This document shows, one piece after another, positions 1 through 28,875 of a stretch of 39,878 bases of DNA. Location of the stretch: positions 1 through 39,878 of the IMG/VR virus record IMGVR_UViG_3300007778_000013, one strand, 5' to 3'. How positions within the stretch are numbered: the stretch's first letter is position 1; the number at the start of each line of letters is the position of its first letter. The stretch is from a virus (Duplodnaviria > Caudoviricetes). Below the pieces are notes generated by a model. It was not told where the DNA came from and searched no databases. It worked only from the letters and a program-made list of their open reading frames with translations. Made by a program: the position numbers and the translations under genes.

Positions 1-62
1 ATTGATCATCGTGCTCGTATATACGACCGAGGATTTATTGGACCACAGTCCGGTGAGACGTT
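1..62 (+). CDS. Single-subunit RNA polymerase RNAP-1, upstream exon (5'-truncated by window)
   Basis: Frame 1 reads IDHRARIYDRGFIGPQSGET, resembling the T7-family DxRGRxY...PQ motif. Joining 62 to 1000 gives ...GETFRPFLN in frame with the downstream polymerase. Confidence 0.88.
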
Positions 63-999
63 AAACATTTAGACGTCTATAAATTCCGTGAATTCAGGGA
101 AACTCCTTAATGGACAATCCTGAGCCAAGCCTTAGTAGGAATACTTTGGAAGGTGCAACGACTAGAGTGTACAATCCAGAACGGATTATGAGACTCATAG
201 GGATCTAGTGATCTCGAAGCGCGGAACGCAATCTTAGATTGTGATGATATAGTCTGATCTGCATAGCAATATGCAGCAGTGTTGTCGGAACACTGGAGAT
301 ACTTATATGGAAGTTAAACCCATACCAAATACACGCTATCTAATCTCTGAAGAGGGTACTGTGTATTCATCGTATAGTAACAAGGCTCTAAAACCCATTT
401 CTGACGGTAGAGGTTATCTTGCCGTAACTTTGTGGATAGACGGTGCTTCAGAGAAGTATAAAATTCACAGACTTGTAGCACAAGTATTTTGTTCTAATCC
501 AGACAATTTGACAGAAGTTAATCACATTGATGGCTGTAAGACTAATAACCGTTACACAAATTTAGAGTGGGTTACTCATTCTCAAAATATGAAACATGCC
601 TTGGAAAATGGCCTTATAAGATTCGGCAGTGAAACTTATATTTCAAAACTGGACGAGACTCTTGTCAAGGAAATAAAAGAGCTAATGCTAAAAGGCCTCA
701 ATAACCAAGAAATAGCTGAGCTATATAGAGTAGCTAGAGGAACTATATCTAAAATAAGGCAAAAGAAAACATGGAAACATGTCTTGCCAAATTTGGATCT
801 ACCTGCTAGTGCTTCTCAATACAAGCCTAAGCTTAGTATAGAACAGAGATTAGAAATAAAGAAACTTAGTAAGGAGGGTCTTACTAATTCTGAACTTGCT
901 AAAAAATTTAAAGTACACAACGGCACAATCTATCAGATTGTGAATAAGTAACTTTCCGACAACACGGCTCAAGATTAACGACCTTGAGTGAACGTAATG
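63..999 (+). mobile_element. Group I self-splicing intron (IA-like) in RNAP-1
   Basis: P1: exon AGACGTT (56-62) pairs with GACGTCT (72-78), with a U62-G72 wobble at the 5' splice site. Core elements AATTCAGGGAAAC, AATCCTGAGCCAAGC, GTGCAACGACTA and GATATAGTCT (P7 GACTA/TAGTC). P9 hairpin CTGCATA-GCAA-TATGCAG. A 12-bp stem (279-290/954-965) encloses the ORF. Terminal G at 999; splicing restores the frame. Confidence 0.93.
307..951 (+). CDS. Intron-encoded HNH homing endonuclease (I-HmuI-like) with C-terminal HTH-like repeats
   Basis: HRLVAQVF...EVNHIDGCKTNNRYTNLEWVTHSQNMKHA; two HTH-like segments (LNNQEIAELYRVARGTISKI, LTNSELAKKFKVHNGTIYQI). GGAGA RBS precedes ATG 307. Confidence 0.92.
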   Translation: MEVKPIPNTRYLISEEGTVYSSYSNKALKPISDGRGYLAVTLWIDGASEKYKIHRLVAQVFCSNPDNLTEVNHIDGCKTNNRYTNLEWVTHSQNMKHALENGLIRFGSETYISKLDETLVKEIKELMLKGLNNQEIAELYRVARGTISKIRQKKTWKHVLPNLDLPASASQYKPKLSIEQRLEIKKLSKEGLTNSELAKKFKVHNGTIYQIVNK

Positions 1000-3007
1000 T
1001 AGACCATTCCTCAATAGTGCAGAAGCCAAACCTTTAGGTATTGCAGGATACCAAAACTTCAACGACCAAATTGGTAGTTTTCTAGGTGGCCTAGATGATG
1101 TATTTGAGGGACGTTTCAACTCACTATCAATTACAGGTCGTCAAAAGATAGCTGAAAAATGGCGTGAAGAGATGGTTACTATTGGTAATCAGATGCTTCG
1201 AGGCAAGCCTAACGACATCCGTAAGATTCTTGAAAATCCGATGGTACAGGCTATAGATGGTGAAGAACAAGGTAAATTCTTCAGATTCGCCATTGAAGTA
1301 GCTAAGATAGACAGGCATCTAGAAGGTAATTACAGTAAGTTAAATCTGTCTAAACTTGATGACTACAAGATGGCAATGGCAATAGAACAGGATGCTTCTT
1401 CTTCTGGAGCCCAGATTATTGCTCTTACTACTCGTAACAAGCAGTTGGCAGAACTTTCTAATGTTGTACCTACCAACCAAAAGAAACGTCTTTACGATGA
1501 AATAGCCCGAGATACCTTCAATGATCCTAGGTTTAAACGTCTTAATGAAAAATTAGGACTTAACGAGAAGGATCTACGTAAAGCAGCTAAAGCTAAGATA
1601 ATGGTGGCGCTATACGGGGCTGGTGCTAGAACTGGTGTAATGAATGTAGAAGGCAAACTTTCTAAAATTCTTGGTAAAGCAGATGACGTACTCGTAGTAA
1701 CAGCTACAGATCGTGAAAAGGTCTTAGCTGACATTTCAGCGCGTATTGCTCGTTTTGATAAAGTCGATCCAGAAATAACCTTAGAGCTTAGAGCATTACG
1801 TCAGAATGTAAAGGATGTCTTTAATAAAGGTGTAAGTCCTAGTCAAGAAATCATGGAACAATTATGGTTTTTAGATCCTAAGACAAGAGAGCTTGTAGAG
1901 AAGATGTCCCATTCTTATGGCAAAGTAATTACTCCTGAAGACTTTAGGCAAATTGCTGTGATAATGACAGAGTACATGGAAGAGCGAACACCTATATTGA
2001 AGTCCTTTACTCGTTTCTTTGGTCGTCTTGCAGAAGACTTCCTAGCTAATGCCAAACCTTCTAAATCTGCATTTGATTGGAAGACTGTAGGTGAATTAGC
2101 ATTTTTTGGCGAGAAGAGAGATCGTGTTAAAGTAGCAGGAAATACAACTCTAGGAAAACTTCTTGGGATAAACTCTACCGAAACTAAAACGATTTCAATT
2201 AAGGCATTTGAACGTCTAGGGTTCGAAAAGAATGGAACACTGTACAAATTACTTTTCGGTGCAGATGCTGCAACAACAAGACGAACTGGTGCTAAATTCT
2301 TTAAGTATGATATTATACCTGAATTGAAAGATACAGGAGGTATTGAAGTATTTACAGCCAACAAGCTACCTAAATCTTGGACAAATGTACCTTTTGTAAA
2401 TTTTGATGGTAAAGTTCTAGAGCAGAACTACTCCCAAATATTTGAAGAAAGGCTACGCTACAAGGATAAGAACGGCAATTGGGTGACTAATATTGTACAA
2501 GTGCCTCAGAAGACAGAAGCCACTTGGTGGGAACAGTTAGTTAATGCTTCAGGCAAAATAGATGATATAGCAGATGCTACTAAGGCTAGAACAGCCTACG
2601 GTGTAAATGCTAACCACTCTAATGATGCTGTAATTGTTAAGCGTTTCCACTTATGGGGTTCTGACAATAAAATACCTACAAGTACAATTCACGATGCATT
2701 CTTTACTAATGCTGCTGATTCATTGAAGGCTAAACAAGCTCTCAGAGAAATTTATGCAGATGTTATGGAAAGAAACGTAATTCAAGAAACACTGACTGAA
2801 ATGCGTAATCGTGGATTACCTAATGATCTCTACAATCAGTATAGAAATGAAGCTATAGATATAGGTCTAATCCCTGTTCCAGGTCGGTCTAAGATAGACG
2901 GAAAGACTCTAACAGACAAAGACATCTTAAAAGCTAAAGATATTTTAGAAGACTTGATTCTAGATGATTTTTCAAATGATAGAAACTGGTATGGTATTGG
3001 TGGTTAG
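1000..3007 (+). CDS. RNAP-1, downstream exon (palm/fingers)
   Basis: Frame open from 1001 (RPFLNSAEAK...). Motif A EQDASSSGAQ, motif B RKAAKAKIMVALYG, AYGVNANHSNDA, motif C TIHDAF. Confidence 0.92.
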
Positions 3008-3034
3008 CACCGTTTCATATGAATCATGGACTTA

Positions 3035-3051
3035 CAAACCCGTTAAATTAA
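3035..3051 (+). promoter_or_regulatory. Candidate phage RNAP promoter, class II (CAAACCCGTTAAATTAA), copy 1
   Basis: Identical 17-mer at 28859-28875; both copies lie ahead of major operons. Confidence 0.65.
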
Positions 3052-3135
3052 AGAGAATAGGTTCACCAGAAGTGAAACACTGGTGTTAACCCCTTAGAAC
3101 AAAGTTTATCGTTGTTTTAAGTTCATTAATTTTCT

Positions 3136-3186
3136 AAGAGCAGGGGAAATATGCCTAATAAAGGCTAGATACGTCCCCTGCTTTTT
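3136..3186 (+). terminator. Terminator/attenuator-like stem-loop in scaffold leader
   Basis: AGCAGGGGA (3139-3147) pairs with TCCCCTGCT (3174-3182), followed by a T run; internal GCCT/AGGC hairpin. Confidence 0.5.
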
Positions 3187-3252
3187 AAACAAAATTTTTA
3201 AGAAGAGTTGTACTCTTTACATTTTATTGAGCTGTGCTCAGAGGTTATATAA

Positions 3253-3930
3253 ATGCCAGAAGATAATATCGATAATACAGTAGAAACAAATGAAGCTGAA
3301 GTAAATGAGTCTGTGGCTCCAAAAGAAGCTCCTAAAGAAAATTCTGTTGTAGATATTCCAGAAAATGTGTTAAATCAAAAAATTGCAGAAGCATTGAAGC
3401 CTATTAAGGAAAAACTTGATAACGCTTATTCTGCAAGAGATGAAGCCCTTAGTAAAGTGGCTGAATTTGAACAGAAAGAAAAAGAAGCCCAATTAGCTCG
3501 TCTTCAGGAAGAAGGCAAGTATAAAGAAGCTTATGAAATGCAGTTAGCCGAAGAGAAGGCACGTAGAGAAGCACTAGAGAAACGCAATGTAGAACTCACA
3601 AGAGACATTGATGTAAATAGTGAACTTGCCAAATATGATTTTCGAACTGCTAAAGCCAAGAATATGGCATTCCAAGAAGTGATCTCAGATCTTGTGCAGA
3701 ATGAGAACGGTGTTTGGGTGCATAAATCTGGTGTTTCTGTTTCTGACTTTGTAAGAACATTTTCTGAGAGTGATGATAATGCCTTTTTGTTTAAGCAGAA
3801 AGCATCTTCAGGTGCAGGTACAATCACACCCACTCCTTCAAATCCTAGTGCCACTACTTCTAACTCTCTTTACAGTATGAGTCAAGATGAAGTGTTACGC
3901 TTAGCTGCTGAAGGTAAACTTCGCAAATAG
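3253..3930 (+). CDS. Capsid scaffolding protein
   Basis: Acidic N-terminus, coiled-coil, FLFKQKASSGAG motif, directly upstream of the capsid gene; GAGG RBS. Confidence 0.8.
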   Translation: MPEDNIDNTVETNEAEVNESVAPKEAPKENSVVDIPENVLNQKIAEALKPIKEKLDNAYSARDEALSKVAEFEQKEKEAQLARLQEEGKYKEAYEMQLAEEKARREALEKRNVELTRDIDVNSELAKYDFRTAKAKNMAFQEVISDLVQNENGVWVHKSGVSVSDFVRTFSESDDNAFLFKQKASSGAGTITPTPSNPSATTSNSLYSMSQDEVLRLAAEGKLRK

Positions 3931-3942
3931 GAATATTAACAA

Positions 3943-5139
3943 ATGGCTGTACAAACTACTTTGGCTGGTGCAGATACTTACGTACTGCAAGAAGCCCTGT
4001 CTGCTTACTCTGATGAAGCATACACTAATGCTAAGAAACTGTCTGGTACTGGTATTGTAGGCGGTAACGCTCAGATCGATACTTCTACTGAAACCTTCAT
4101 TGGTCAGGTTCGTTGGAACAAACCTTTTGATGCTACTATCAACGTTGCGTCTTTGACTAACGCTGCTGATGGCTCTTACAACAGCTACGAAACTGATTAC
4201 CTGCGTTACATCAAGACTGTTCGTACTTACGGTGCGAAGAAAGTCAACATGCAGGAAGTTGTTACTCAGGTTGACGGTCTGGCTAAAATCGGTCGTGACT
4301 TTGGTGAACACCAAGCACAGGACGAACATGATGCTATCCTTTCTGTATTGAAAGGTGTTGCTATGTCTGAAGCTCTGAACGGTGCAGCTGCTGCTTCTGG
4401 TCAGGCAGGTCTTGGCGGTCAGACTTTCGAAAACGATCCTACTGACAAGCGCTACGGTTTCTACGTAGACATGGGTGCTAACGCTATTGTTACTGCGGCT
4501 ACTACTTCTTCACAGGGTGCTGCTCGTGCAGAAAGCTTCCTTCAGGCATTCGGTAAAGCATTCAAAGACTACGAGCCAGAATACGCTTACCTGATCGTGT
4601 CTCCAGAAGTATACGCTTCACTGCGTTCTGCTAACTTGGTTGATCAAGATCGTGTACGTGATGGTTCTATTGAATTCAACACTATCTTCCAAGGCAAGTT
4701 CCGTCTAATCCAGACTCGTGCTACTCAGTCTTTCTCTTCTGCTGAGTTGAATGCTCTGAATGCTGGCGCTGGTGTAGATATCGCTGGTACTAAGACTTCT
4801 TTCATTGTCCGTCCAGGTGCAATTGAAATGGCATCTCTTAATGTTCCAATGCCTACTGAAATTGAGCGTAAAGCTTCTAGTTACCTCGGTGGTGGTGAAA
4901 CTCAGATTTGGCGTCGTTGGGGTTATGTTCTTCATGCTGGCGGTTACGACTGGTCTGGTAATCAAGAAGCATTTCCAACCAATGCTAGCTACACTGGTGT
5001 TGTACGTTCAGCTTCTAACTTTGAAGATGTTGCTACAGCACAGGCTACAGATACTACTCTGGCTAATACTGTTGGTACTTGGACTCGTAAGACTGCTTCT
5101 GCACTGTCTTTGGGTATCCTGCCTGTATTCCACGCCTAA
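3943..5139 (+). CDS. Major capsid protein
   Basis: 398 aa, follows scaffold, strong high-expression codon bias, EIERKAS...GGGETQIWRRWGYVLH motif typical of phage coat proteins. Confidence 0.85.
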   Translation: MAVQTTLAGADTYVLQEALSAYSDEAYTNAKKLSGTGIVGGNAQIDTSTETFIGQVRWNKPFDATINVASLTNAADGSYNSYETDYLRYIKTVRTYGAKKVNMQEVVTQVDGLAKIGRDFGEHQAQDEHDAILSVLKGVAMSEALNGAAAASGQAGLGGQTFENDPTDKRYGFYVDMGANAIVTAATTSSQGAARAESFLQAFGKAFKDYEPEYAYLIVSPEVYASLRSANLVDQDRVRDGSIEFNTIFQGKFRLIQTRATQSFSSAELNALNAGAGVDIAGTKTSFIVRPGAIEMASLNVPMPTEIERKASSYLGGGETQIWRRWGYVLHAGGYDWSGNQEAFPTNASYTGVVRSASNFEDVATAQATDTTLANTVGTWTRKTASALSLGILPVFHA

Positions 5140-8287: not shown

Positions 8288-11200
8288 ATGGCTGGTGTCA
8301 AGTTAGATGTAAATTCTGACTCTACCCGTGCGCGGCAAGACCTCTCAAAGCTTAATCAAAAGCTAGCTGAAGTCTTTCGCAGTGCAAACAAGTCAGGAAC
8401 TGCAATCGATAGCATATCCGCTAAACGATTTAAAGATCTTAATAAACCTATAAAAGACTCTACTAAAAACATTAAAGACTTTGGAAAGCAAAGTACTGAA
8501 AGCATGAAGAATGCTTCAAATAGTGCAAATGGCCTAGGGGCTGCACTAAAAGGTACTATTGCCTCTGTTGTTGCATTAGGTAGTGCATTTCTTGCAATTA
8601 AGGGCGCTAATGCTCTAAACAAGACATCTGATGATCTTACTAAGATTGAAAACAAACTAAAGCTTGTTACAAATGGTACAGAGGATCTTATCTCTACATT
8701 TGAAAGACTTAACAAGCAATCACGAGAAAACCGTGTAGATCTTGCAAGTACTACACAGCTATATGTTACACTTCGAAAATCACTTAGCAGTAGCTTAACA
8801 TCTGTAGGTGATATTGAACGTGTAATGAGCATTATTCAAAAGTCTGTTGCCTTATCTGGTGCTTCTGCAGAATCTGCAAAGTCTGCAATTGTACAGTTGG
8901 GTCAGGGTTTATCTGCTGGCGCGCTTCGTGGACAAGAATACTTGTCAGTAATGGAGCAGTTGCCATACACGGCTGACTTGCTTGCCAGAAGTTTTGGCAA
9001 GACTCGTGGAGAGTTAAAGAAACTTGCAGATACAGGACAGATTACTACTGAAGCGATTTTATCAAACTTCCTTAAAATGGAAGCATCGGTAGGTGCTGAT
9101 TTCCAGAAAACAGTTCTTACAGCTGAACAAGCCATAGAACAGATGAATTCTCGTATTTCTCAGTTCTTTGGAAATCTCAATCGTATATCTGGTTTTAGTG
9201 AAGGCTTTTCTAAACGTATTGTTGCTATAACAGATGCTTTTGAGAGAGCCACTTTAAGTCTTATTGCTTTCAGTGGGAGTTCTAAGACAGCTGCAGATAC
9301 ATTTAAGCGTAATTTCTTAAGTTTGACTAATGCTAAAATTGCGTTAGACGCTGTAATGGCATCGCCTATAGACCCTTTTTATGCTTACAGAAAATACACA
9401 GAAACAAAAGAATTACGTGATAATCTTGTAGGCACTAATGCTCTTATAAAAGAGCAAATATCTGAACGCAAGAAGCTCAGAGACTTTGGTGTAACAAATG
9501 AATCTATTGACAGCACTGGTAGCATAGATGCTGAGATTCCTAAAATAGTAACATTCAGATCTGTTGCTATTCAAACCGCAGAAGCCGTAAAAGAGCTGTT
9601 TAGATTCTTCAAAATTACAGCTGTAAATATTTCTCAATATTTTGGTAGTATTCTTACGCCTGTTTACAGATTAATACATCAAGCTGGTATTGCTATTGTT
9701 GACTTCCAGAAGCAGATGGATATTGCTGTAAACCGCTCAGTTGTTCCTTTCTTGAGAGCTATTCAGAATATAAATGAGTATTTAGTATTCTGGGAAAGAG
9801 ATACTAACATTGAGAGAGCTTGGTCTAGGCTATTTCGTTCGGATAGTATTTCAGACTTTGTAACTAATCTGAAATTGCTGAACAATGAGCGAGAGAAAGG
9901 GGCTAGACAAAATTGGGATATTTGGATTGAAGATGCAAATGTCGAATACCTTAAGCTTAAGAAATCTGTAGAAGGCGTATTGATATCATTAAACTTGATG
10001 GATCAGCGTTTCTTCTCTGTAAGATTCTTTCGTGTTGACAAAATTCTTCAAGACTTGCAGACAATTGGCGGAGCTATCAGTACAGTATATCGTGACGTAT
10101 TCAAAACATATGTTGATCGCTATACAACATTAGCACTTAACACTATTAAGCTGAACTTGTCTGTAATTGTAGAGTATTTTACAGATCGCTTTGGTGACAA
10201 TGTTGCAAAAGGTATCGGTGGTATTCTTGGCAGTTTTATTGTAACTGTTCTTCAAGGTATTAGGGCTGCTGTTATTCAAGGGACAAGTCTATTAAAAGAC
10301 ATTTTTACACTTGAAGGCAGTCTTGAAATTGATTACCGAGACTTCTTTAAAGTATTTGAATTCATCAAGAGTCTATTTACGTCTTTTGCAAGCACTATTT
10401 ATAAGGGTTTAGATCTAGGTAGTCTAGTTGAAGATTTAATCTTAAAGCCGCTAGCTAGTGCAAAGGTTGCAGTCCATGGCTTTATGCAAAGAATGGCAAA
10501 AACTATAGGCGATCTTTCTTTCAATAAAGCATTAGAAGCCGTTAAATCATTTACTCAGAAAGTAAAAGACTATTTCTTTGATGTGTATGATGCTGTTGTA
10601 GGTAACTCTTATTGGCCTGATCTTGTTGACGGTGTAAATAATAAAGCAAATGAACTTATTTCTGGTGAAAGTCGTGTTGCAAGATTTGCCGCAACTATAA
10701 AGAATACTTTTAGAAGTCTAGATCAGACGGTTGGTAATCTATTTACTAATCTGATTGCTAGAGTCAGTTCAGTAGTTTCTACAATTTCTACGGCAAACTG
10801 GACAGGTATCGCCAAAGAGCTCTCATCTAATTTGAGTGCAGCTTTCATATCAGCTTTCCTTATTACAAGACAAAGTGTTATAGCTAAACTGGGAGGAACA
10901 CTGTTCTTTAGCGGCTTGTTTGATATTTCAGCCAACAATGAAAAGAACCCGTTCTTAAATCAAACACTAGCTATTTCTGATAGTGTTATTCAGTCGTTTA
11001 CAGAAAACCTGTTGAAAGGTCTTTCTAATGCCTTTACAACAATAGTTACAGCACTACCTACTCTGTTTAGTAGTATATTTAGTAGCTTTGGTTTGTTTGG
11101 AAATATCCTAGATGGTATTATTAGAACTTTGACTCTGAACTATAACGTAATTATTACAGGGGCAATAGGCGCTCTTATAACTTACATATTGTTTGCTGAA

Positions 11201-14200
11201 AAGAAACTCAAAGCTCTTCAAGTTGTAGCTTACAATGCTATAGATGCTTGGAGAGGCGTGCTACCTAGAATTGCTACAATAGGCGGTGTTAACTTTAATG
11301 CTCTAGGTATTGCCTCTATTGCAGCTTTTGCCTCAGGTCTTCTTGACGGTATATCAGCAAGTCAAGCCATCATAGGTGGAATAGGATTAGCATTAGCATC
11401 TGCACTAGGTGGTAAAGGCTTTGCGCGTTTGGTGTTTACAGCAGGCGGTGAGATAGGTACTGCAATTGCAAAATCTATCACGAGAATGTTGCTTGGACAA
11501 GGGGCTATAGATTCAATTGCAAAAGCTTGGGAATCTTTGCTTAGTCGTGGTGCTGCAAAAGCAGATCCTTTGAAAAAGTTCAGTAGTTTCAAGAGAGATA
11601 GCTTCAAGAAATCTCTTGACAGATACATTAGACGCTTTAAGCAAGATACTGCAAAATATGCTGATGGCGCTATTTCATTGACTGATCTGTTACTTGGTGA
11701 TCCTAAGAAATTTGGATCATTTGCAGGGCTGTCATCACAGTTCAAGCGAGCCTTTAACATAAAACCTGTAGGTCTTGACAATCTGCGAAAGTCATTAGAC
11801 AAGCTAAAAGTTACGTCTAAAGCTGTGCTTGTAGACGGTTTAATTAGCTCTGTTTCTGATTTCGGCGCAGTACTTCGCAGAGTTTCTGGAACAGCACTGG
11901 CCAATTTTGTAACAAGTCTCAATGGCATGTTTGGGCTTATTCGTGGAAATCTAAGTCTAATTTTGATTACAGGTGGCTTGTTCTCTACATTTGCCTTTGC
12001 AAGCGATGGAGCATCTACAGCTATTGCTGATCTTGTTAGTGAAGCTGGAAAACTTGTAGTACTCACGACTGTTCTAGGTGCAGCTGTTGCATCTGTAAAA
12101 GTTCTAGGTTCTAGTTTTGCTGCCTTTGGTTCGGCTTATAAAGCTTTTGCACAACAAAACTTTGCAGAACTTTGGGAGCAAGCAGCTCCACAAAGGGAAG
12201 TTAAGCTAAATACTCTAAGAGCAGTATTTGGAGATAACCCTGAAATTATTTCTAGTGAATATGAAGCTTACCTCCAGGCTCAGAAGGCAGCTATTCAACG
12301 TGAAGCTAAGAGTGGTGCCTTTGTAGTAGGCGCTAAAGCTGCTGTAGAAGAATTTAGAACAGGTATGGCCAAGGCCTTTGGACCATTCCAGACTGTTGTT
12401 CGAAATATTTCTAACGGCATGTTTGCTTTGATTGGCGGTATTGGTGCCTTTTATGAGAAACTAGCAGCTGCAATTGTAGTGTCTGCAAGGGCAGTTAAAG
12501 CAGGTTTTGGCGGTCTTAGCGGAGTTCTTACTGATCTCAAAACATTGTTTGAGGGTGTCAGGACACTAAGTCTTGGTGCGGCTATCTCTGATATTAGAGG
12601 TCGTAGAGCAGAACGTGCATCAGTAGCAACTGCAGCCGCAGCGGGTGCTGGTCTTGGCGAAGTTATCTCAGATGCATTCTCCTTGAAACGTTTGAAGGAC
12701 TTTGGAAATGCTCTAAAGTCTACAGTAGGTGCAATCGTATCAACTCTTGGCGCAATTGGCTCTAATATTAAAGGGTTGTTCTTAGGCATACTCTCAGTAA
12801 TAGGTTCGCTGGGTAAAGCTCTCTTAGGTCTTGTTTCACCGTTTATTCTAAAAATTGCAGCTGTAGCTGGCGGAGCTGGTCTCTTAGCTGTAGCTTTCTT
12901 TGGAACAGGTGAGACCTTCTTTGAGAAATTACAGAATGCTTATGATGGTGCTAGAGCGCTTATTGGATTAGCTCCTACAGGTCGTGTAGCTCGTGAGAAG
13001 GAAATTTTAGGTGGCTTTGATTCCAGACAGATTGGCGATTATTTCTTAAACTTTGGTGGTCTTCAAGACACTATCGATTTTGAAGAGCTTACTGTTAAAC
13101 AATATGAATTGCTAAAAGAATATGGCAATACTGTTGCTGAAGCTGTAAACTCGGCTGAACGTGAAGCATTTAGAAACAATGAAAAGCTTTCTCAAGAAAC
13201 TAAAAAGTCTCTTGACAGAACTGTAAAAGACTATATCCGTTTCTTATCAAAGCTTCCTGTTCGCGAAGGTCTTGAACGAACTTCTTTCTTCTCTGCGGCT
13301 AATATTACAGGTCAGGAAGAACAAAATAGTTTTATTCAAAGATTGCTAAGACTTTCAGGGTCTAATAGGGGTAGAGCTATAGGAGCTATTCCTGAAGATA
13401 CAGTATTTGACGGTATATCTAGACAAATTGATGCTATATTTAATAGCAGCTACATTTCTAATGTAGGAAAGACTCTTGATAATGCCATCTTGGATCCTCT
13501 TAGAGGGCTGGGCGGTGTACTAGACGGTCTTATTGAAGGGATTGCTAATATTGGTGTCGCTCCTATAGATGTGGCATTAATTAGACTTCAAAAGGATCTG
13601 AAGGGATATAGTGAATCTCTTACTAAGAATCAAGCATTCATTTCTCAGGAAGAATCAGCTAAGTTAAAAGAAGCCAATGATGCACTTGTAAAAGTCCTCA
13701 AAGAGCGTGATAGGTTTAAGACTTTAGTTAGACCTGATTCGGATGACTTTGCAGCTGCACAAGCTTATGACGATCAGCTTAAGTTACTTGATACTCGTGT
13801 TCAATTAGCAATAGATGCGCTAGGTAAATCTGCTTCTGAAATTACAGCTATTGCTGAAAACAGAAGTATTATAGAACCTTTGCAAACGCTTTATAAAACA
13901 TTTATTGATGATATTGGCAAGGGCTTAAGTTTAGACTTTGGTGATGTCGGTCAAAACTTCTTTGGCGGTGCTTTAGGCAAAGAGATACTTACAGGTCTCA
14001 AGAAAACCAGAGATGCTATTGACACTCGTGTTAAAGATAATGCATTGCAATTTGTTGCAGAATCTGGTGAAGTTGATTTTGATGCGTATTTGGATGCTGT
14101 AACTAAAGCTAATATTGATGCTGCTAGAATAAACAGATTAGCAGCGGCAGAGTCTGGTAGACAGACTGCTGAAGCTTTTGCTGATAGCTACCTCAGTGCA

Positions 14201-17200
14201 ATTCAGAAGAGAACTTCAGAGCTAGGTTTCTCAGATACTACGCTAAAGCGTTTATTATCAAGAGAAGGTCCAAGAGAAGAGATATCAGGAATTGTAAATG
14301 CAATTGATATCTTAGAAGCTAGAATGGCGAATGTTGATCTGGGTTCGAGAGAATGGGGTGTATTAAATGATGCTATTCTCAACCTTCGTGGTGAACTAGT
14401 TAAACAATTGCCTTCTTATGGTCTAGTTCAAGATATTGAAACTTTGACATCTAAACTGGGTATTGGTAATATTTCTAATGATGTTATAGCTAATTTAGAA
14501 ACAAATGATCTTAAACAATTTAATGATCAATTAGCTGTAACTCTTCAAGCCAGAGAAAAGCTTAGAAATGTACAAAATAGGATTCAAGGTGGCGATGTAA
14601 TTCCTGAAGAGGAATTAGCCGCTCTCAAAGAATACAATAATTCTCTGAGAGAATCTAATAATGCACTTCTGCAGCTTAATATTACTTCTGCACAAGGTGC
14701 TATACAGAAACTACCATTTGGTGAAGGTGCTGTAGAAGTTTCTAGAATCTTTAATACAGAGATACCTAACGCTGTTGCTCAAAGCGAATCTAAGCTGAAT
14801 GAATGGGCTGCATTGTTTGTTTCCAAGCAAGAGTATATTCTTGCTATGTCTGAGGCTAAGTCTGCGGAGGCTGTAAGAAATCTTGCGCTTGCTCTCGATT
14901 ATGTAAATAATCGTTTAGACAAATTAGCCGAAAAGATAACTTCTAGCCGTTACTTGTCCTTTGACATGCAACTCGGCTTTGACTTAAATGAAGCTCAACT
15001 TGCTAGTAAGATCTCTTCTGCAAAACCTCTAATTGATAGTGTTATCGAAGAGCAGGAATTGCGTCAAAATAAGCTTCTCTCTAGCGTAGGTCTTCAAGAG
15101 AGCCTGAGACGTGAACAGGAAGCACTAGATGGACTCTTTAATCTTTACAAAAGCGAACTTGGAAAATCTGGACAAGGTGTTGTATCTGTCTTGAATGACA
15201 TAGGTGTAACATCTGCAAGAGCTATTGCTCAGGCTTCGCCTAAGATTATTGATCAAATTGTTCAAAATAAAGCAGAAATATTGGCTTTAACAAGAACTCT
15301 ACAGGGCGAACTTACCAATGAAGAGCTCAAGGCTAACCAAGATCGTATATCTCAATTAGAGAAACAAAATGAGCGTTATGCTCGCACTCTAAATGAGAGC
15401 TACACAACAAGAGTTGGTCGTCTTTCAGATCTTTTGAGCAATATAACCTCTGAACAAGTCTATGCTAGGGCTACTGCAGGTTTCAGACGTATCTTTGATA
15501 CCGCAGGATTGTATCTAGAAGACTTAAGAAAAGATCTTGAATATGGATTAATCTCTGAAAATACATTCCAGGGTGTTGTTGATAGTGTAACACCTCTTCT
15601 TTCTGTGCTAAATAAAGTACAAACTGCACTAACAGCCGTTGCGGATGCATCAAAACAGGGCTTTAAGTCTGCCTTTGATTCTATCCAATCTTCGCTGAAC
15701 TTAGTGTCAGAAGAGCTTTTAGCATTTACTAGAATTGGTGCCAATACTCGTGAAGAGATGACTAGACAAGCCACTGCTCTGAATGAGATCTTTGAGATTT
15801 CTCAGATGCAAGATTTGCCTCGTGCTGTCTCAGATGCGATATCTAAAGGCAATTTCGATAATGCTCCTGAACTGCTTGCTAGTATTCAGGCAGCAATGGA
15901 AGGCATTTTTGGTGAGAATGTATTTGCTAGTCCCTTAGACAATAATACAAAGGCCATAAAAGATCTAACTGCAGCAATTCTAGGAAAACCGATTGTAAGT
16001 GCAACTGCTAAGACAGGCAATTTACAAACTAGTCCTGAAGGAACTAATGTCAAATCTACTGCAAATATTAGTGCTAAAGATATTGAAATAGCACCTGTAG
16101 ATGCTGCTGCGGTTGCTCGCAAAGTTGCAGTTGCGGGAATAAACAGCAGTTACAAGCTTCTTCAAGAAACAGCAGATAAGAGCGGATCACTGTTTAGTCA
16201 AGTAAGAACTTACTTAGACTTCTTAAATATTGATTCCTCTAAACTCGATCTTGCTGATGCTGGAAGACTTCGGGATATTTCTTCAGCTGTCGGTGATGCA
16301 ATTTCTATCAATAAAGAACTTGGCTTAGCTATTGCTAATAATTCGCCTGATGTTCAAAGATTGACAAGAGATGCCAGAGAAGCCAGTAACAGGCTATCAG
16401 AACTATCTTCTAGTATTAGGGATCTTGGTGCTGATACTGTTGCAGCTGGCAAAGACTTTTCAGAAGACATGAAGGACAGTATTAAAGGCGGTCTTTCAGA
16501 TGCTATTAAAGGAAAGACTAGTTTTGCTGAATTTGGTGAAATTCTTTTAGACAAGTTTACAAGCAATGTTATTGATACGTTTGTAAGCGGTCTTGTAGAT
16601 AATGTCTTTGATAATTTCTTAGAAGATTTCTTCTCTGGAATAGGTAGTGGTCAATATGGTCTTGGTGATTCTGTTGGCAAATCTGTATCTGACTCATTTA
16701 TCGGTACTTTCTTTGAAGATGTTACTAATCAAATGAAAGTTGGATTTTCAGATACTGCGAATGAAATTACAGGGATTTCTTTCTTTGATACGTTGCTAGG
16801 TTTCCTAAATACAGGATTTAGTGGTCTTGTAAATGGTGTTAGCAAACTGTTTGGAGGAAGTGGCGGATTTGACCTGCTTGGGTCTATTGGTGGTTTCTTT
16901 GGCTTTGGAGGCGGTGGCGGTGGTGCCATGACTGGAGGTGCGGCATTAGACACTGCATTTGGTATTTCAGGCCTTGCTACAGGCGGTTACGTAAGAGGTC
17001 CAGGTTCAGCCACTTCTGATAGTATTATGGCTATGTTGTCTAATGGTGAATTTGTAATAAATTCTAAGGCAACAAAGGCTTGGCTACCTCTACTTGAGCA
17101 GATCAATCGTGGTGCTTTGCCTAAATTTGCAGAGGGTGGTATGGTTGGCTACTCAAGCAGTCTTGCTAACATTGCTCCAGAAAAATCGGAAAGCTCTTCT

Positions 17201-17329
17201 GAAAATGTTGTAGTTAATATTAATATTACAGGAGATATCTCAAAACAGACTCGTAGAGAAGTCTTGGGCATGTCTAATGAAATTGCTAACATGGTTCATG
17301 GTAGCTTCAGAGAAAAGAGGATACTCTAA
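8288..17329 (+). CDS. Tail tape measure protein (3013 aa)
   Basis: Tape-measure domain IVQLGQGLSAGALRGQEYLSVMEQLP, hydrophobic middle, C-terminal ATGGYVRGPGSATSDSIMAMLSNGEFVIN and FAEGG motifs; follows G/GT chaperones. Confidence 0.92.
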   Translation: MAGVKLDVNSDSTRARQDLSKLNQKLAEVFRSANKSGTAIDSISAKRFKDLNKPIKDSTKNIKDFGKQSTESMKNASNSANGLGAALKGTIASVVALGSAFLAIKGANALNKTSDDLTKIENKLKLVTNGTEDLISTFERLNKQSRENRVDLASTTQLYVTLRKSLSSSLTSVGDIERVMSIIQKSVALSGASAESAKSAIVQLGQGLSAGALRGQEYLSVMEQLPYTADLLARSFGKTRGELKKLADTGQITTEAILSNFLKMEASVGADFQKTVLTAEQAIEQMNSRISQFFGNLNRISGFSEGFSKRIVAITDAFERATLSLIAFSGSSKTAADTFKRNFLSLTNAKIALDAVMASPIDPFYAYRKYTETKELRDNLVGTNALIKEQISERKKLRDFGVTNESIDSTGSIDAEIPKIVTFRSVAIQTAEAVKELFRFFKITAVNISQYFGSILTPVYRLIHQAGIAIVDFQKQMDIAVNRSVVPFLRAIQNINEYLVFWERDTNIERAWSRLFRSDSISDFVTNLKLLNNEREKGARQNWDIWIEDANVEYLKLKKSVEGVLISLNLMDQRFFSVRFFRVDKILQDLQTIGGAISTVYRDVFKTYVDRYTTLALNTIKLNLSVIVEYFTDRFGDNVAKGIGGILGSFIVTVLQGIRAAVIQGTSLLKDIFTLEGSLEIDYRDFFKVFEFIKSLFTSFASTIYKGLDLGSLVEDLILKPLASAKVAVHGFMQRMAKTIGDLSFNKALEAVKSFTQKVKDYFFDVYDAVVGNSYWPDLVDGVNNKANELISGESRVARFAATIKNTFRSLDQTVGNLFTNLIARVSSVVSTISTANWTGIAKELSSNLSAAFISAFLITRQSVIAKLGGTLFFSGLFDISANNEKNPFLNQTLAISDSVIQSFTENLLKGLSNAFTTIVTALPTLFSSIFSSFGLFGNILDGIIRTLTLNYNVIITGAIGALITYILFAEKKLKALQVVAYNAIDAWRGVLPRIATIGGVNFNALGIASIAAFASGLLDGISASQAIIGGIGLALASALGGKGFARLVFTAGGEIGTAIAKSITRMLLGQGAIDSIAKAWESLLSRGAAKADPLKKFSSFKRDSFKKSLDRYIRRFKQDTAKYADGAISLTDLLLGDPKKFGSFAGLSSQFKRAFNIKPVGLDNLRKSLDKLKVTSKAVLVDGLISSVSDFGAVLRRVSGTALANFVTSLNGMFGLIRGNLSLILITGGLFSTFAFASDGASTAIADLVSEAGKLVVLTTVLGAAVASVKVLGSSFAAFGSAYKAFAQQNFAELWEQAAPQREVKLNTLRAVFGDNPEIISSEYEAYLQAQKAAIQREAKSGAFVVGAKAAVEEFRTGMAKAFGPFQTVVRNISNGMFALIGGIGAFYEKLAAAIVVSARAVKAGFGGLSGVLTDLKTLFEGVRTLSLGAAISDIRGRRAERASVATAAAAGAGLGEVISDAFSLKRLKDFGNALKSTVGAIVSTLGAIGSNIKGLFLGILSVIGSLGKALLGLVSPFILKIAAVAGGAGLLAVAFFGTGETFFEKLQNAYDGARALIGLAPTGRVAREKEILGGFDSRQIGDYFLNFGGLQDTIDFEELTVKQYELLKEYGNTVAEAVNSAEREAFRNNEKLSQETKKSLDRTVKDYIRFLSKLPVREGLERTSFFSAANITGQEEQNSFIQRLLRLSGSNRGRAIGAIPEDTVFDGISRQIDAIFNSSYISNVGKTLDNAILDPLRGLGGVLDGLIEGIANIGVAPIDVALIRLQKDLKGYSESLTKNQAFISQEESAKLKEANDALVKVLKERDRFKTLVRPDSDDFAAAQAYDDQLKLLDTRVQLAIDALGKSASEITAIAENRSIIEPLQTLYKTFIDDIGKGLSLDFGDVGQNFFGGALGKEILTGLKKTRDAIDTRVKDNALQFVAESGEVDFDAYLDAVTKANIDAARINRLAAAESGRQTAEAFADSYLSAIQKRTSELGFSDTTLKRLLSREGPREEISGIVNAIDILEARMANVDLGSREWGVLNDAILNLRGELVKQLPSYGLVQDIETLTSKLGIGNISNDVIANLETNDLKQFNDQLAVTLQAREKLRNVQNRIQGGDVIPEEELAALKEYNNSLRESNNALLQLNITSAQGAIQKLPFGEGAVEVSRIFNTEIPNAVAQSESKLNEWAALFVSKQEYILAMSEAKSAEAVRNLALALDYVNNRLDKLAEKITSSRYLSFDMQLGFDLNEAQLASKISSAKPLIDSVIEEQELRQNKLLSSVGLQESLRREQEALDGLFNLYKSELGKSGQGVVSVLNDIGVTSARAIAQASPKIIDQIVQNKAEILALTRTLQGELTNEELKANQDRISQLEKQNERYARTLNESYTTRVGRLSDLLSNITSEQVYARATAGFRRIFDTAGLYLEDLRKDLEYGLISENTFQGVVDSVTPLLSVLNKVQTALTAVADASKQGFKSAFDSIQSSLNLVSEELLAFTRIGANTREEMTRQATALNEIFEISQMQDLPRAVSDAISKGNFDNAPELLASIQAAMEGIFGENVFASPLDNNTKAIKDLTAAILGKPIVSATAKTGNLQTSPEGTNVKSTANISAKDIEIAPVDAAAVARKVAVAGINSSYKLLQETADKSGSLFSQVRTYLDFLNIDSSKLDLADAGRLRDISSAVGDAISINKELGLAIANNSPDVQRLTRDAREASNRLSELSSSIRDLGADTVAAGKDFSEDMKDSIKGGLSDAIKGKTSFAEFGEILLDKFTSNVIDTFVSGLVDNVFDNFLEDFFSGIGSGQYGLGDSVGKSVSDSFIGTFFEDVTNQMKVGFSDTANEITGISFFDTLLGFLNTGFSGLVNGVSKLFGGSGGFDLLGSIGGFFGFGGGGGGAMTGGAALDTAFGISGLATGGYVRGPGSATSDSIMAMLSNGEFVINSKATKAWLPLLEQINRGALPKFAEGGMVGYSSSLANIAPEKSESSSENVVVNINITGDISKQTRREVLGMSNEIANMVHGSFREKRIL

Positions 17330-24539: not shown

Positions 24540-24566
24540 GCCCCGACTTCGGTTGGGGCTTTATTT
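24540..24566 (+). terminator. Rho-independent terminator ending the structural operon
   Basis: GCCCCGAC-TTCG-GTTGGGGC-TTTATTT. Confidence 0.88.
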
Positions 24567-24656
24567 CGCCCAGAGTGGTCACCTCTGCAATTTTTCGGAT
24601 GTATTCAACCGAAGGTACAGCCCAACCCAAAAATCCCAGAGATTTGTTCTCCGTGG

Positions 24657-24685
24657 AACTGCGGAAAAAGCGGTATCTTATATGA
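24657..24685 (+). promoter_or_regulatory. Candidate phage RNAP promoter, class I (AACTGCGGAAAAAGCGGTATCTTATATGA), copy 1
   Basis: Identical 29-mer at 25403-25431; about 30 nt before an RBS-linked start. Confidence 0.7.
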
Positions 24686-24905: not shown

Positions 24906-24931
24906 AAAATTAAGTCTCGGGGGAGATGGCT

Positions 24932-25081
24932 ATGAACAAGCAAGACCGTAAACTTATCGCTAAGCTGAATAAACCTGTTTTATCTAAAGAAGATAAAGCT
25001 AAATTAATAATCGAGGAAACTGTAACAGTAATAGTCGTAGTAGTTACCGTATTCGGTATCATTATGACATTTCTGTTCTAA
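24932..25081 (+). CDS. Small membrane protein (49 aa, C-terminal TM helix)
   Basis: GGGGGAG RBS; MNKQDRK...VTVIVVVVTVFGIIMTFLF. Confidence 0.65.
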   Translation: MNKQDRKLIAKLNKPVLSKEDKAKLIIEETVTVIVVVVTVFGIIMTFLF

Positions 25082-25093
25082 AGGAGACATATT

Positions 25094-25399: not shown

Positions 25400-25402
25400 G
25401 AA

Positions 25403-25431
25403 AACTGCGGAAAAAGCGGTATCTTATATGA
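25403..25431 (+). promoter_or_regulatory. Candidate phage RNAP promoter, class I, copy 2
   Basis: Exact repeat of 24657-24685; intergenic, 24 nt before ATG 25456. Confidence 0.7.
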
Positions 25432-25455
25432 TAAGCAAACATGAGGAGAAATATT

Positions 25456-25617
25456 ATGCTTAGTAACATTGTTGTTTGGTTGTTCATTTTGTCTGGTATT
25501 GCTTACTTTATTTCAGGGTCTATACTACGCGTATACGCCGTGAAAAAGAGTTTTGACGAGCAGAAAGAAATAGCAGTAAAAGCTGCTATGACTGCTGCTA
25601 AAGCAACAAAGCACTGA
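25456..25617 (+). CDS. Small membrane protein (53 aa, N-terminal TM helix)
   Basis: GAGGAG RBS; MLSNIVVWLFILSGIAYFISGSILRVYAV... Confidence 0.7.
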   Translation: MLSNIVVWLFILSGIAYFISGSILRVYAVKKSFDEQKEIAVKAAMTAAKATKH

Positions 25618-25620
25618 GGA

Positions 25621-25646
25621 GGAGGGGCTACGGCCCCTTTTATTTT
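25621..25646 (+). terminator. Rho-independent terminator
   Basis: AGGGGC-TACG-GCCCCT plus T-rich tail. Confidence 0.75.
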
Positions 25647-25751
25647 ATGGGAACTCTATTTACAATTTGGCTATTTTATTTAATATTTGTTATGTCAAAA
25701 GATAAAAGATTCGTCATTAAAAATGGCAAAAAGAAAGGCAAGAGGAACTAA
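25647..25751 (+). CDS. Possible small membrane peptide (34 aa)
   Basis: MGTLFTIWLFYLIFVM plus basic tail; fills the gap exactly but has no well-spaced RBS. Confidence 0.35.
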   Translation: MGTLFTIWLFYLIFVMSKDKRFVIKNGKKKGKRN

Positions 25752-25753
25752 TC

Positions 25754-26053
25754 ATGTCAGCATTAAATGATTCAGAAAAGGCAAAACTTGAAACTGTATT
25801 AAAAGCTATTGAAGAGGAGGCAAGAAAACCTGCACCAACGTTGTTTGAAAGATTAACAGATGCAATTGCAAGAGGCATATTAATGTCCGGCATAGCAGCT
25901 CTTGTTATCATTCTAATGTCTAAGCCTATATTTGGCAATGTAATCTTGACAGCACAATCGGTATCAGCGATTGTGGCAATCGGCATAGGTTTCGCAATTC
26001 TAAACTTTGTATTAGAATCTGTGTTTGCTAGAAAAAGTAAGAAAAATAATTAA
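25754..26053 (+). CDS. Membrane protein with two TM helices
   Basis: GAGGA RBS; two hydrophobic stretches and a basic C-terminus. Confidence 0.7.
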   Translation: MSALNDSEKAKLETVLKAIEEEARKPAPTLFERLTDAIARGILMSGIAALVIILMSKPIFGNVILTAQSVSAIVAIGIGFAILNFVLESVFARKSKKNN

Positions 26054-26059
26054 AATGAC

Positions 26060-26084
26060 AGCCTCCCTTCGGGGAGGCTTTTTT
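26060..26084 (+). terminator. Rho-independent terminator
   Basis: AGCCTCCC-TTCG-GGGAGGCT plus T run. Confidence 0.88.
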
Positions 26085-26175
26085 AATTCATTATTTTTTT
26101 TTCAAATTCTAACAATCTTGGCTCTTAACATTAACGCCTATTACTAGCAGGAGACAGCGAAATGAACACTAGTTA

Positions 26176-26304
26176 ATGAAGAAATACAAGACTCTAAAAA
26201 GCTTTACAGAAGTTTTTATAGGAGCACTTGTTGTAATGTTGGCAATTCGATATGGGCTTGTTATAATACTACTCTATATCGGTTATAGATCAATAACAAG
26301 GTAA
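26176..26304 (+). CDS. Small membrane protein (42 aa)
   Basis: MKKYKTLKSFTEVFIGALVVMLAIRYGLVIILLYIGYRSITR; coupled by TAATG to mini-ORF 26162-26176. Confidence 0.5.
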   Translation: MKKYKTLKSFTEVFIGALVVMLAIRYGLVIILLYIGYRSITR

Positions 26305-26309
26305 CGCTC

Positions 26310-28544
26310 ATGAAGCAAGCAATACTGGAAAGTTTGGAAAATAGAAAAAGTGAGATACCAAGTCGCAGTCAGCTGCGATATCTCATAGATCTAGACTTCA
26401 ATGATCACATTAACGACATAATAAGCATAGTGTATCTTTACACTAGACCTAAGAGAAACACAACTATTCCACATATCTTCTTAACTGAAGTAATTTGTGC
26501 AATAGGTCGCAAGATGATGCAATCTTTGAAAATGAAACAGAATTCATCTATTGCGGCAAAAACTGGAGCCTACGTTATTTACTCGTTTGAAGAAACAAAG
26601 CTTCTACAAGTAGTGCTTGGGCCAAGTATTAGAAAACATGCTGCTTATGTTATAAACGTATTAAAAGACGAAGAGATATGTAAATTATGGACAACTGTAC
26701 CATCCAGTACAATTGAAAAACTTCCTAACCTAAAGCCTTATGCGCCTTGGGAAAGCTTCAAGCATGAGACAGGTGTGAGCCTTGTAAAAACTCTTAGTGA
26801 AGACATTAAGAAGAAAATAAACATAAAGGATCAGCCTCTCATGTTTGAAGCAGTCAACCGTGCTCAAGAGGTAGGTTGGCAAATAAACCATGAGGTGTAT
26901 TCTATACATCTATGGGCATTCAAGTACAAGGCATTGGCGTTTTCAGATATCTGGAATGCACACAGTGCTGAAGCTAGAGCAACAAAGATGAGAGAGACAA
27001 AAGCAATTACAAGCATAGCTACACGCTTCTTGTATGATACTTTCTATCATCTTTATACTTACGATTTTCGTGGTCGTAAGTACTGCTCTACAGCATATTT
27101 GAATGAACAGGGTAGTGACCTTGCAAAAGGTCTTCTAATACGAGCAGATAAGAAGCCTATAGGAGAGAAGGGTTTCTACTGGCTATGTGTCAGTATTGCA
27201 TCTAATTGGGCTGGTGATGCCGGTCGTGAAGATGGTGCAAAGACTGATAAGATTCCTCTTGATGATCGTGCAGAGTGGACATTGAATAATGAAGATATTA
27301 TCATGTCCTATGCACAAGATCCTAAAGAGAATCAAGGCTGGATGGAAGCAGATAAACCGTGGCAATTTCTGGCTGCTTGTTTAGAGTTTAAGAATCTTCG
27401 TGATTGGCAAACAATGATCGAAGATCCTGATGACTACTCTTACGTCAGTGGGCTGGAAGCCTATATAGACGGGACTACTAACGGCAGTCAGCATTTGTCT
27501 GCATTAACGTTAGATGAGATAACTGCGCCTTTAGTTAATCTATTGCCATCTGATCTTCCAGGAGATCTCTATATGTATGTCGCAGGACATCTATGGGATC
27601 ACCTAGGAAAAGAGGTGGCTAAGATGACACCTAAAGCTCTGAAGAGTGCTAACAGGGTTATTGACTCTTTGATAGGTCTTAAGATGCAAATATCTTTGAC
27701 AGAGCCTAAATCAGATGAAAGGAAAGAACTTGTTGATCAGCTCAAAGAGTTTAAAGCGCAGTATAAGTCTGTAATCAGGGCAGCTGCTCCTGTATTCTGG
27801 CTACGTGTTAAAGATGCCAAGCATCAACGCAAAGTTGTAAAACGCGGTGTAATGACACTTCCTTATGGTGCTAAACCGTATGGTCTAGGTGAACAAGTCA
27901 TAACTGATAGTCGCAAACATGGTATTGATCTTCTCAATTACATGGAGCATATTTGGGGTGCTTATGCTGGTCGTGAGCTATTCAAGATATGTGAGGACTG
28001 TCTACAAAGACCTATGCGTCTATTGTCTACATTCGAGGAAGCTGGTAGGAAGAAAGAAGCTAAGGGTGAATTCCTTAAGTGGACTGTTCCAGTGACTAAC
28101 TTTCCAGTAGAGCAATACTACGTAGAAGGTGTTGTAAAGAAGACTTGGGTACCCTATGGCCCACCATCTGGTAAAGTCTTGAATACAGGCTATGATAAGA
28201 ATACTCTTCAGCTGAAGGTAGCTTACATAGAGCATTTGCAACCGTCTAAGTACAAACAGTCACAAGGTGCAGCACCGAACATCATACATAGTTTGGATGC
28301 AGCTCACTTAGTGATGACTGTATGTGCAGCAGACTATCCTGTTACAACTATTCACGATTCCTTTGGGTGTCTGTTAGCTGATATGCCTGATCTGTATATA
28401 ACTGTTAGAGAAACATTTGCACGCTTGTATGCACATGACCCTTTGACATCTATACTGCAAAACATCAATATGTCTAATGCAGACATTAAGAGAGGTAATC
28501 TGAATATCATTAAAGTAATAGACTCGGAGTATTGTTTCTCATGA
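26310..28544 (+). CDS. Single-subunit T7-family RNA polymerase RNAP-2
   Basis: YDFRGRKY, ADKPWQFLAAC, motif A DGTTNGSQH, motif B RKVVKRGVMTLPYG, APNIIHSLDA, motif C IHDSFG, C-terminal SEYCFS. Confidence 0.96.
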   Translation: MKQAILESLENRKSEIPSRSQLRYLIDLDFNDHINDIISIVYLYTRPKRNTTIPHIFLTEVICAIGRKMMQSLKMKQNSSIAAKTGAYVIYSFEETKLLQVVLGPSIRKHAAYVINVLKDEEICKLWTTVPSSTIEKLPNLKPYAPWESFKHETGVSLVKTLSEDIKKKINIKDQPLMFEAVNRAQEVGWQINHEVYSIHLWAFKYKALAFSDIWNAHSAEARATKMRETKAITSIATRFLYDTFYHLYTYDFRGRKYCSTAYLNEQGSDLAKGLLIRADKKPIGEKGFYWLCVSIASNWAGDAGREDGAKTDKIPLDDRAEWTLNNEDIIMSYAQDPKENQGWMEADKPWQFLAACLEFKNLRDWQTMIEDPDDYSYVSGLEAYIDGTTNGSQHLSALTLDEITAPLVNLLPSDLPGDLYMYVAGHLWDHLGKEVAKMTPKALKSANRVIDSLIGLKMQISLTEPKSDERKELVDQLKEFKAQYKSVIRAAAPVFWLRVKDAKHQRKVVKRGVMTLPYGAKPYGLGEQVITDSRKHGIDLLNYMEHIWGAYAGRELFKICEDCLQRPMRLLSTFEEAGRKKEAKGEFLKWTVPVTNFPVEQYYVEGVVKKTWVPYGPPSGKVLNTGYDKNTLQLKVAYIEHLQPSKYKQSQGAAPNIIHSLDAAHLVMTVCAADYPVTTIHDSFGCLLADMPDLYITVRETFARLYAHDPLTSILQNINMSNADIKRGNLNIIKVIDSEYCFS

Positions 28545-28870
28545 GGATCTATAGTACACTTGAGGAGATCGTAAACGAGAATAGCTTAATCTCTGATGTA
28601 GCAATGACCGTTTATGAAGAATATGTCAAGCCTGTGCTTGAAGAATATGATATGTCGATGAAAGAAATCTGTCGAATTGAAGTAGCCACGGCTACAAACG
28701 AAGTTGATATGTTTCTTTCTAATGACATATATGAGTTTATGGAAACGTCAAAAGATGGCAAAGCTACAGTAAAACTACGTATACTATCTGATGATGGCTG
28801 CGGAGTTTACTATGTTATTCCAAATGACTCTGCTTTAATTCTAAAAAGTAAAGGCACTCAAACCCGTTAA
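28541..28870 (+). CDS. Hypothetical acidic protein coupled to RNAP-2
   Basis: ATGA overlap with RNAP-2 stop; GGAG RBS upstream. Confidence 0.65.
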   Translation: MRIYSTLEEIVNENSLISDVAMTVYEEYVKPVLEEYDMSMKEICRIEVATATNEVDMFLSNDIYEFMETSKDGKATVKLRILSDDGCGVYYVIPNDSALILKSKGTQTR

Positions 28871-28875
28871 ATTAA
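28859..28875 (+). promoter_or_regulatory. Candidate phage RNAP promoter, class II, copy 2
   Basis: Exact repeat of 3035-3051, 45 nt before the SSB start. Confidence 0.65.

Follow-up and report, generated by a model that had tools for sequence, protein, structure and literature searches.

The window, that is, the whole stretch of DNA analysed here (39,878 nucleotides, nt), is the entire IMG/VR record IMGVR_UViG_3300007778_000013 of a tailed phage. It amounts to about half of a genome, near-complete relatives measuring 63-92 kb. Head genes are followed by long-tail genes, a block of small genes, the gene of a T7-type RNA polymerase (RNAP-2) and a T7-like replication set; all recognised genes lie on the + strand. 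The end of a second polymerase gene (RNAP-1) precedes the head genes. A preliminary description of this DNA had proposed that a siphovirus uses two T7-family polymerases with intact motifs A, B and C, together with two kinds of exact repeat, in an N4-like transcription cascade. Both enzymes match PF00940, with catalytic residues that could be located, and genes for a tail terminator, a major tail protein, a tape measure of 3013 amino acids (aa), Dit and a hub mark a siphovirus-type tail.

RNAP-1 is the C-terminal part of a predicted gene product of ~1547 aa, in which MuF, a head protein of the SPP1 gp7 type, is fused to a T7-type polymerase (MuF-RNAP hereafter). Its frame, which stops at 3007 and matches PF00940 (RNA_pol), lies before the scaffold and capsid genes as first described, but it is not a single open reading frame (ORF), being split by a group I intron that carries an HNH gene. 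The window starts with the end of exon 1 (1..62, +), which encodes a DxRxR motif. The intron (63..999, +; RF00028 at 53-276, 89.6 bits) contains the gene of an HNH homing endonuclease (271..951, +; PF13392, phrog_59), and exon 2 (1000..3007, +) encodes palm and fingers with motifs A, B and C, the last two of which are separated by a long insertion. The catalytic residues are encoded at 1391 (motif A Asp), 1577/1589/1613 (motif B Arg/Lys/Tyr) and 2690/2693 (motif C His-Asp). The 5' exon ends in U (62), the intron in its terminal G (999), and exon 2 resumes at 1000. The exon products abut at residues 880/881 of the intron-less homolog P0001, and removal of the predicted intron would restore the reading frame of intron-less homologs. 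The exon-intron-exon stretch was contiguous in one contig in each of three freshwater metagenome runs, from which the phage may stem.

The N-terminal portion of the protein is encoded outside the window. An overlapping contig, L003, is 99.9% identical and extends upstream, where it carries the portal gene and then an exon 1 of 878 codons. PF04233 (MuF) matches residues 145-250 of this exon with 55.8 bits (cut-off 29.6), which confirmed the expectation of a MuF domain at the N-terminus of RNAP-1 next to the portal. The MuF-RNAP gene thus sits between portal and scaffold/capsid. We found 292 long MuF-RNAP homologs; among the 120 listed, PF04233 and PF00940 occurred together in 119, most proteins being ~1540 aa long, and motifs A, B and C were conserved in 120, 117 and 120, respectively. 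The fusion was the sole MuF protein in 5/5 complete genomes tested. In GenBank, the only phages matching RNAP-1 were DSS3_VP1, DSS3_PM1 and the partial EBPR siphovirus 1 (4 records). The MuF-RNAP gene has repeatedly acquired insertions, which lie at several positions and comprise group I introns, HNH genes and inserts of intein size that keep the frame; RNAP-1 genes with such insertions are those of L002, L006, L007, L049, L058, G009, G010, G014, G016 and G026.

Based on motifs A/B/C and a right-hand fold, RNAP-1 is predicted to be a single-subunit RNAP of the T7 superfamily. A model of a relative's RNAP-1 (residues 371-1542) had a predicted local distance difference test (pLDDT) score of 68 and T7 RNAP as its best PDB match (E 1.6e-16); T7 and mitochondrial RNAPs came first in the fold search. 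In a viral library, the top match had 1463 aa, the length of DSS3_VP1 gp28 (see below), and N4-like virion enzymes ranked lower, below T7-type enzymes. With the RNAP-1 profile, the core of the N4 virion RNAP (vRNAP) scored E 0.25, T7 1e-5 and N4 gp16 6e-6; a PDB sequence search with this profile gave a weak T7 match (E 0.08) and 1uly at E 0.0004. Because both profile and fold searches rank N4 vRNAP below T7-type enzymes, RNAP-1 is, as judged by these comparisons, a separate deep lineage and not an N4 vRNAP. The N4-like program first suggested holds as an analogy but not as kinship, RNAP-1 scoring no closer to N4 vRNAP than to T7.

RNAP-2 (26310..28544, +; PF00940) is a stand-alone protein of 744 aa, with catalytic residues encoded at 27468 (Asp), 27828/27840/27864 (Arg/Lys/Tyr) and 28353/28356 (His-Asp). 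Its model (pLDDT 88) superimposes on T7 RNAP (1cez) with a TM (template modelling) score of 0.74; by motifs and right-hand fold, it is likewise predicted to be a single-subunit RNAP of the T7 superfamily. In a pairwise comparison, RNAP-1 and RNAP-2 had only a short stretch at motif C in common. A tree of 27 catalytic regions placed each in a clade of its own (100/98); the deep placing in this tree is not relied upon, as motif B is misaligned in the RNAP-1 and N4 rows and long branches meet. We surveyed 23 large contigs, picked for having either enzyme (16 found via RNAP-2, 7 via RNAP-1). RNAP-2 was present in 23/23 and RNAP-1 in 22/23, and 22/22 genomes at least 90% complete had both.

The exact 29-mer (class E) occurs twice in the window, at 24657..24685 and 25403..25431 (both +), with putative starts at G 24684 and G 25430; its pattern has 2 matches as against 0.03 expected. 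The class E consensus is YGCGSAAA, four free bases and GGTATCTTATATGA. In 81 RNAP-2 loci (1.34 Mb, duplicates included), 113 of 114 exact cores were on the coding strand and 112 of 114 lay 0.5-8 kb upstream of RNAP-2. Class E was found in 23/23 genomes, with 2-5 copies on a single strand per genome (1 match in the reversed control). None was located between terminase and tape measure in 10 fully read genomes, 6 of which had extra copies in a second block behind the replication genes. Throughout IMG/VR, only ~200 stretches match class E. A total of 153 class E loci were returned, 78 of them with flanks; RNAP-2 was present in 55 of these, in all 55 downstream and on the same strand, and 9 of the 78 were without any family marker.

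With the start set at the final G, class E agrees with the T7 promoter phi1.1A at -11, -8 and -7, in the A/T-only positions -4 to -1 and in the GA start. It is bipartite, with an extra upstream GCG box near -23, and is longer than a T7 promoter. No conserved dyad that could form a hairpin was apparent, the spacer varying freely over 89 distinct sites. Class E is likely an early promoter for a phage enzyme.

The 17-mer (class L), with the core CCCGTTRNNTTAACCC, is present in two exact copies in the window, starting at 3035 and 28859. One (3035..3051, +) lies before scaffold and capsid; the other (28859..28878, +) is followed after ~60 nt by the gene that opens the replication operon, likely that of the single-stranded DNA-binding protein (SSB), a label taken from gene position with no family match so named. 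The window contains 15 repeated 17-mers compared to a shuffle mean of 0.1; a third exact 17-mer repeat (29463/29477) is a local tandem duplication unrelated to class L. A class L site was found at most 60 nt past the stop codon of RNAP-1 in 66 of the 83 loci whose downstream DNA was long enough (48 distinct sites); the window itself, two further contigs of its phage and DSS3_VP1 are counted among the 83. The distance from class L to the next gene is steady at ~50-65 nt. With a matrix derived solely from scaffold-side sites, 45 of 58 distinct regions had class L no more than 130 nt ahead of the SSB-type gene. All 10 fully read genomes had class L ahead of both terminase and scaffold, and 8 of them also had it ahead of the SSB-type gene; 2 reversed matches were seen among the 10.

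Class L preceded the terminase side in 10/10 genomes, so the RNAP-1 gene, together with portal, lies downstream of L, in line with the earlier prediction that RNAP-1 is made late. The division first proposed, with the 29-mer before early genes and the 17-mer before replication and structural genes, holds throughout the family, and both motifs are directional. Since E and L are one-directional, restricted to the family and T7-like in layout, both may be promoters of phage enzymes, L likely serving as a late or middle one. Only 1 of 39 loci had an L site between the last E and RNAP-2. In L157, an L-type site lies ~115 nt before the RNAP-2 gene and suggests self-amplification in that lineage. In two assemblies, class L occurs once more on a different contig of comparable depth, which might be the missing part of this genome.

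Between the class E motifs and the RNAP-2 gene, there is a hairpin followed by a T-rich tract (26060..26105, +), an arrangement kept in the family. The tract consists of 20-31 T in several relatives and at least 48 in one, and might be a slippage or attenuation element. Directly before RNAP-2 is an ORF for a hydrophobic peptide of 42 aa (26176..26304, +), which contains a sigma-70-like match (26239-26267). Many relatives have one or two similar small ORFs of membrane type at this place.

Two Ruegeria phages, the cultured DSS3_VP1 and DSS3_PM1 (Naomiviridae, Noahvirus; MN602266), resemble the window phage in the order portal, MuF-RNAP, scaffold, capsid and in siphovirus morphotype; relatives had thus already been described, a point that the preliminary description had left undecided, and the fusion was not recognised there. 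The DSS3_VP1 paper lists gp28 as 'minor head protein-like', and the term 'RNA polymerase' does not occur in its main text (PMC8323127); the accessible text of a paper on the deoxyuridine (dU) enzymes of DSS3_VP1 makes no mention of transcription enzymes (PMC12697855). DSS3_VP1 gp28 (1463 aa) contains MuF and RNA_pol, and gp56 is a second RNAP, 34% identical to RNAP-2. The phage is nevertheless distant, with ~25-41% identity over RNAP-1 segments. Its E-like motif has three forward copies (35809, 36256 and 67793) with the same spacing as class E: two open the block leading to gp56, just past a terminator, and one lies in a second block. Its L-like motif has 15 forward copies (2 control matches), three of them before portal; it differs from class L upstream of a common TTAA, and none was found before the DSS3_VP1 scaffold gene. 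Literature searches, which did not cover subscription papers or bioRxiv supplements, returned no paper on a fusion of MuF to a T7-type RNAP or on either motif.

The window phage and DSS3_VP1, a member of Naomiviridae, have core genes and their order in common, and terminase is 51-59% identical in 9/10 relatives (those listed for the DSS3_VP1 query plus G020). dU-DNA has been demonstrated in DSS3_VP1. Of the dU pathway, which comprises a dCTP deaminase and a dTMP phosphatase, the deaminase (PF00383) was found in 0/5 complete relatives, with one 36% match in 10 genomes, the window genome being incomplete; ThyX and ThyA were likewise absent from the 5 complete relatives. A gene for a YfbR-like HD-domain nucleotidase lies at L172:1959-2516, just past the window end, and could bear on nucleotide pools or base substitution.

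Taken together, these features make it fairly probable that a packaged MuF-RNAP reads the E motifs early in infection and that RNAP-2 then reads the L motifs. What was observed is the fusion, its place between portal and scaffold, the preservation of catalytic residues and the position of each motif throughout the family; the biochemical steps proposed here would follow MuF biology and the precedents of N4 and P23-45. MuF-RNAP, whose gene is downstream of L, would be made late from the terminase-side L promoter; in this isolate, its message would also require intron splicing. MuF proteins are believed to be DNA binders, present in the head at 2-3 copies (PMC12226406). In view of what MuF proteins do, MuF-RNAP would bind at the portal during head assembly, enter the cell with the DNA and transcribe the E blocks. 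As the RNAP-2 gene itself lies downstream of E, another enzyme would have to read E first. Partial read-through of the terminator would supply RNAP-2 and keep its level low, and RNAP-2 would drive the replication, packaging and structural operons from L.

Several observations weigh against this relay. Less than 450 nt upstream of RNAP-2, the hairpin with T tract was found in 34/39 distinct loci compared to 2/60 random windows, and it also occurs before the RNAP gene of DSS3_VP1. With a terminator conserved at this place, transcripts from E must pass through it, or another start exists; a simple cascade, as first proposed, agrees with the split of the motifs into early and late classes but is complicated by this element. 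The sigma-70-like match just before RNAP-2 in the window scores 11/12. In DSS3_VP1, the E-like motif holds a perfect sigma-70 -10 hexamer, and motif B has Ala in place of Arg (Lys and Tyr-Gly are kept). RNAP-2 may transcribe the early block too, given that 10/10 relatives, unlike the window, have an L site either among the E sites or no more than ~1.7 kb ahead of them. Finally, a protein of ~175 kDa would presumably need to pass unfolded through the long tail tube.

The -10 hexamer in DSS3_VP1 keeps alive a model in which RNAP-2 is made by the host RNAP from E or from some unseen promoter, and the packaged MuF-RNAP has another task, for example pulling the genome into the cell by transcription or priming replication. 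Besides the terminator and the sigma-70-like site of the window, the bipartite structure of E, which at ~-23 exceeds the length of a T7 promoter, would suit this model. However, E is confined in IMG/VR to the family of the window phage, and class E of the window type has no sigma-70 -10/-35 pair at the right spacing. As a family feature, the sigma-70 site before RNAP-2 was rejected: it lies within the small ORF and is not conserved, scores of at least 11 occurring in only 1/56 distinct upstream regions and of at least 10 in 5/56, compared to 5.5% of shuffles. We regard transcription of E by the host enzyme as unlikely. Alternatively, the relay may be real with a third component: RNAP-2 expression would depend on an early anti-termination or co-factor protein, as N4 RNAP II requires gp2, or MuF-RNAP would start near the T tract. 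The frequent hairpin with its long T tract, behind which lie small hydrophobic ORFs (one or two), is consistent with such a component, but no other conserved motif was apparent on inspection between T tract and RNAP-2 start, and T7-type enzymes partly read through such terminators. A third component appears quite improbable to us.

The pairing of enzymes with motifs might also be swapped or shared, newly made MuF-RNAP acting late at L and RNAP-2 reading E after a host-driven start. We looked for covariation of specificity loops with motifs; since the cores vary within single genomes, the loops do not settle the pairing, and no sequence test favours either assignment. Against a swap, L also precedes the replication operon and the RNAP-1 gene, so that RNAP-1 cannot start the circuit unless packaged, and RNAP-2 is downstream of E; a swapped assignment is very unlikely. 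Still harder to credit is the notion that both motifs are binding sites of a phage repressor or activator and not promoters. The L core does hold an 11-nt dyad with a variable centre, but the motifs are nearly one-directional (1/114 E cores and two L matches reversed) and L keeps its steady spacing to the next gene. The two-enzyme relay can also be placed in a wider picture, which we advance tentatively and with somewhat less than even confidence: a widespread family of siphoviruses of 65-90 kb would have independently evolved a deep-branching T7-type virion RNAP that is fused to MuF, a DNA pilot protein bound at the portal, is threaded down the long tail together with the DNA, uses a new bipartite promoter in double-stranded DNA and is then relieved by another single-subunit enzyme for replication and all structural genes, the whole infection proceeding without host RNAP.

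Elsewhere in the window, scaffold and major capsid genes (3253..5139, +; scaffold from 3253, phrog_206; major capsid from 3943, phrog_247) are preceded by twin small hairpins with YYGTR loops (3204..3241, +), just 5' of the scaffold ribosome-binding site. At least one such hairpin occurs in 56/63 distinct loci and two in 43/63 (shuffles, 3.6% and 0%); the stems vary among loci, and one hairpin is kept in DSS3_VP1. The pair is a candidate translational operator for the head genes. The tape measure gene (8288..17329, +) was assigned by Pfam/phrog scans. No polymerase domain, as in P23-45, or other enzyme domain was found in the window's tape measure protein; Pfam matched nothing in its final 413 aa, and the tape measure of DSS3_VP1 has only ~1655 aa. 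A site resembling an intrinsic terminator (24540..24569, +) ends the tail operon right before the first class E motif. The primase-helicase (1224 aa, 33894-37568) contains Hint and LAGLIDADG domains and probably two inteins. A scan of GTDB for a host gave two matches in the same metagenome bin; one is a phage-sized contig of 74,179 nt, and a host was therefore not assigned.

What is new here is that both enzymes and both motif classes lie on one contig, to which come family-wide counts of both, the terminator kept before RNAP-2 and the corresponding two motifs in a cultured phage. As DSS3_VP1, which is cultured on Ruegeria pomeroyi, has the fusion and the motif pair, the whole model is testable. 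If it is true, tethering a T7-type enzyme to MuF would add an independent way of carrying a polymerase in the virion to those of N4 and P23-45, and MuF, a common and poorly understood head protein, would gain a role in delivering very large cargo. New orthogonal expression systems might also be built on the two single-subunit enzymes and their defined promoters, which occur throughout the family.

Virion-carried polymerases also occur in jumbo and crAss-like phages. The podovirus N4 has early promoters that form hairpins, and its late genes are transcribed by the host enzyme; in the window, by contrast, class E has no conserved hairpin, structural genes carry L and the tail genes are those of a long tail. 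The N4 relay (Schitoviridae) consists of the virion RNAP gp50, which has 3500 aa and no MuF, and RNAP II (gp15/gp16), which has two subunits, whereas RNAP-2 is a single subunit of 744 aa. N4 resembles the window phage in having two T7-superfamily enzymes, one of them coded among virion genes, according to the accessible part of one source (PMC5512222); injection is proposed for RNAP-1. In the long-tailed Thermus phage P23-45, a vRNAP fused to the tape measure (gp96) transcribes the gene of a second RNAP (gp64), and there are two promoter motifs (PMC10770324). The P23-45 enzymes are of the two-barrel type, with the tail tape measure as fusion partner, whereas the window phage has T7-type enzymes and uses a head protein, MuF, as carrier. 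The MuF effectors MuF-ART, MuF-Apk2 and MuF-PBECR combine an N-terminal MuF, encoded in the head cluster, with a C-terminal enzyme (PMC5512222, PMC9503650, PMC12226406). Their cargoes are variable toxins, and the accessible portions of these papers mention no RNAP among them, in contrast to the conserved RNA polymerase found here. T7, SP6 and Xp10 have one RNAP per genome; the window's enzymes form clades of their own, although the RNAP-2 model fits T7 RNAP and the E layout is T7-like. By this comparison, the proposed relay would function like those of N4 and P23-45 but belongs to neither.

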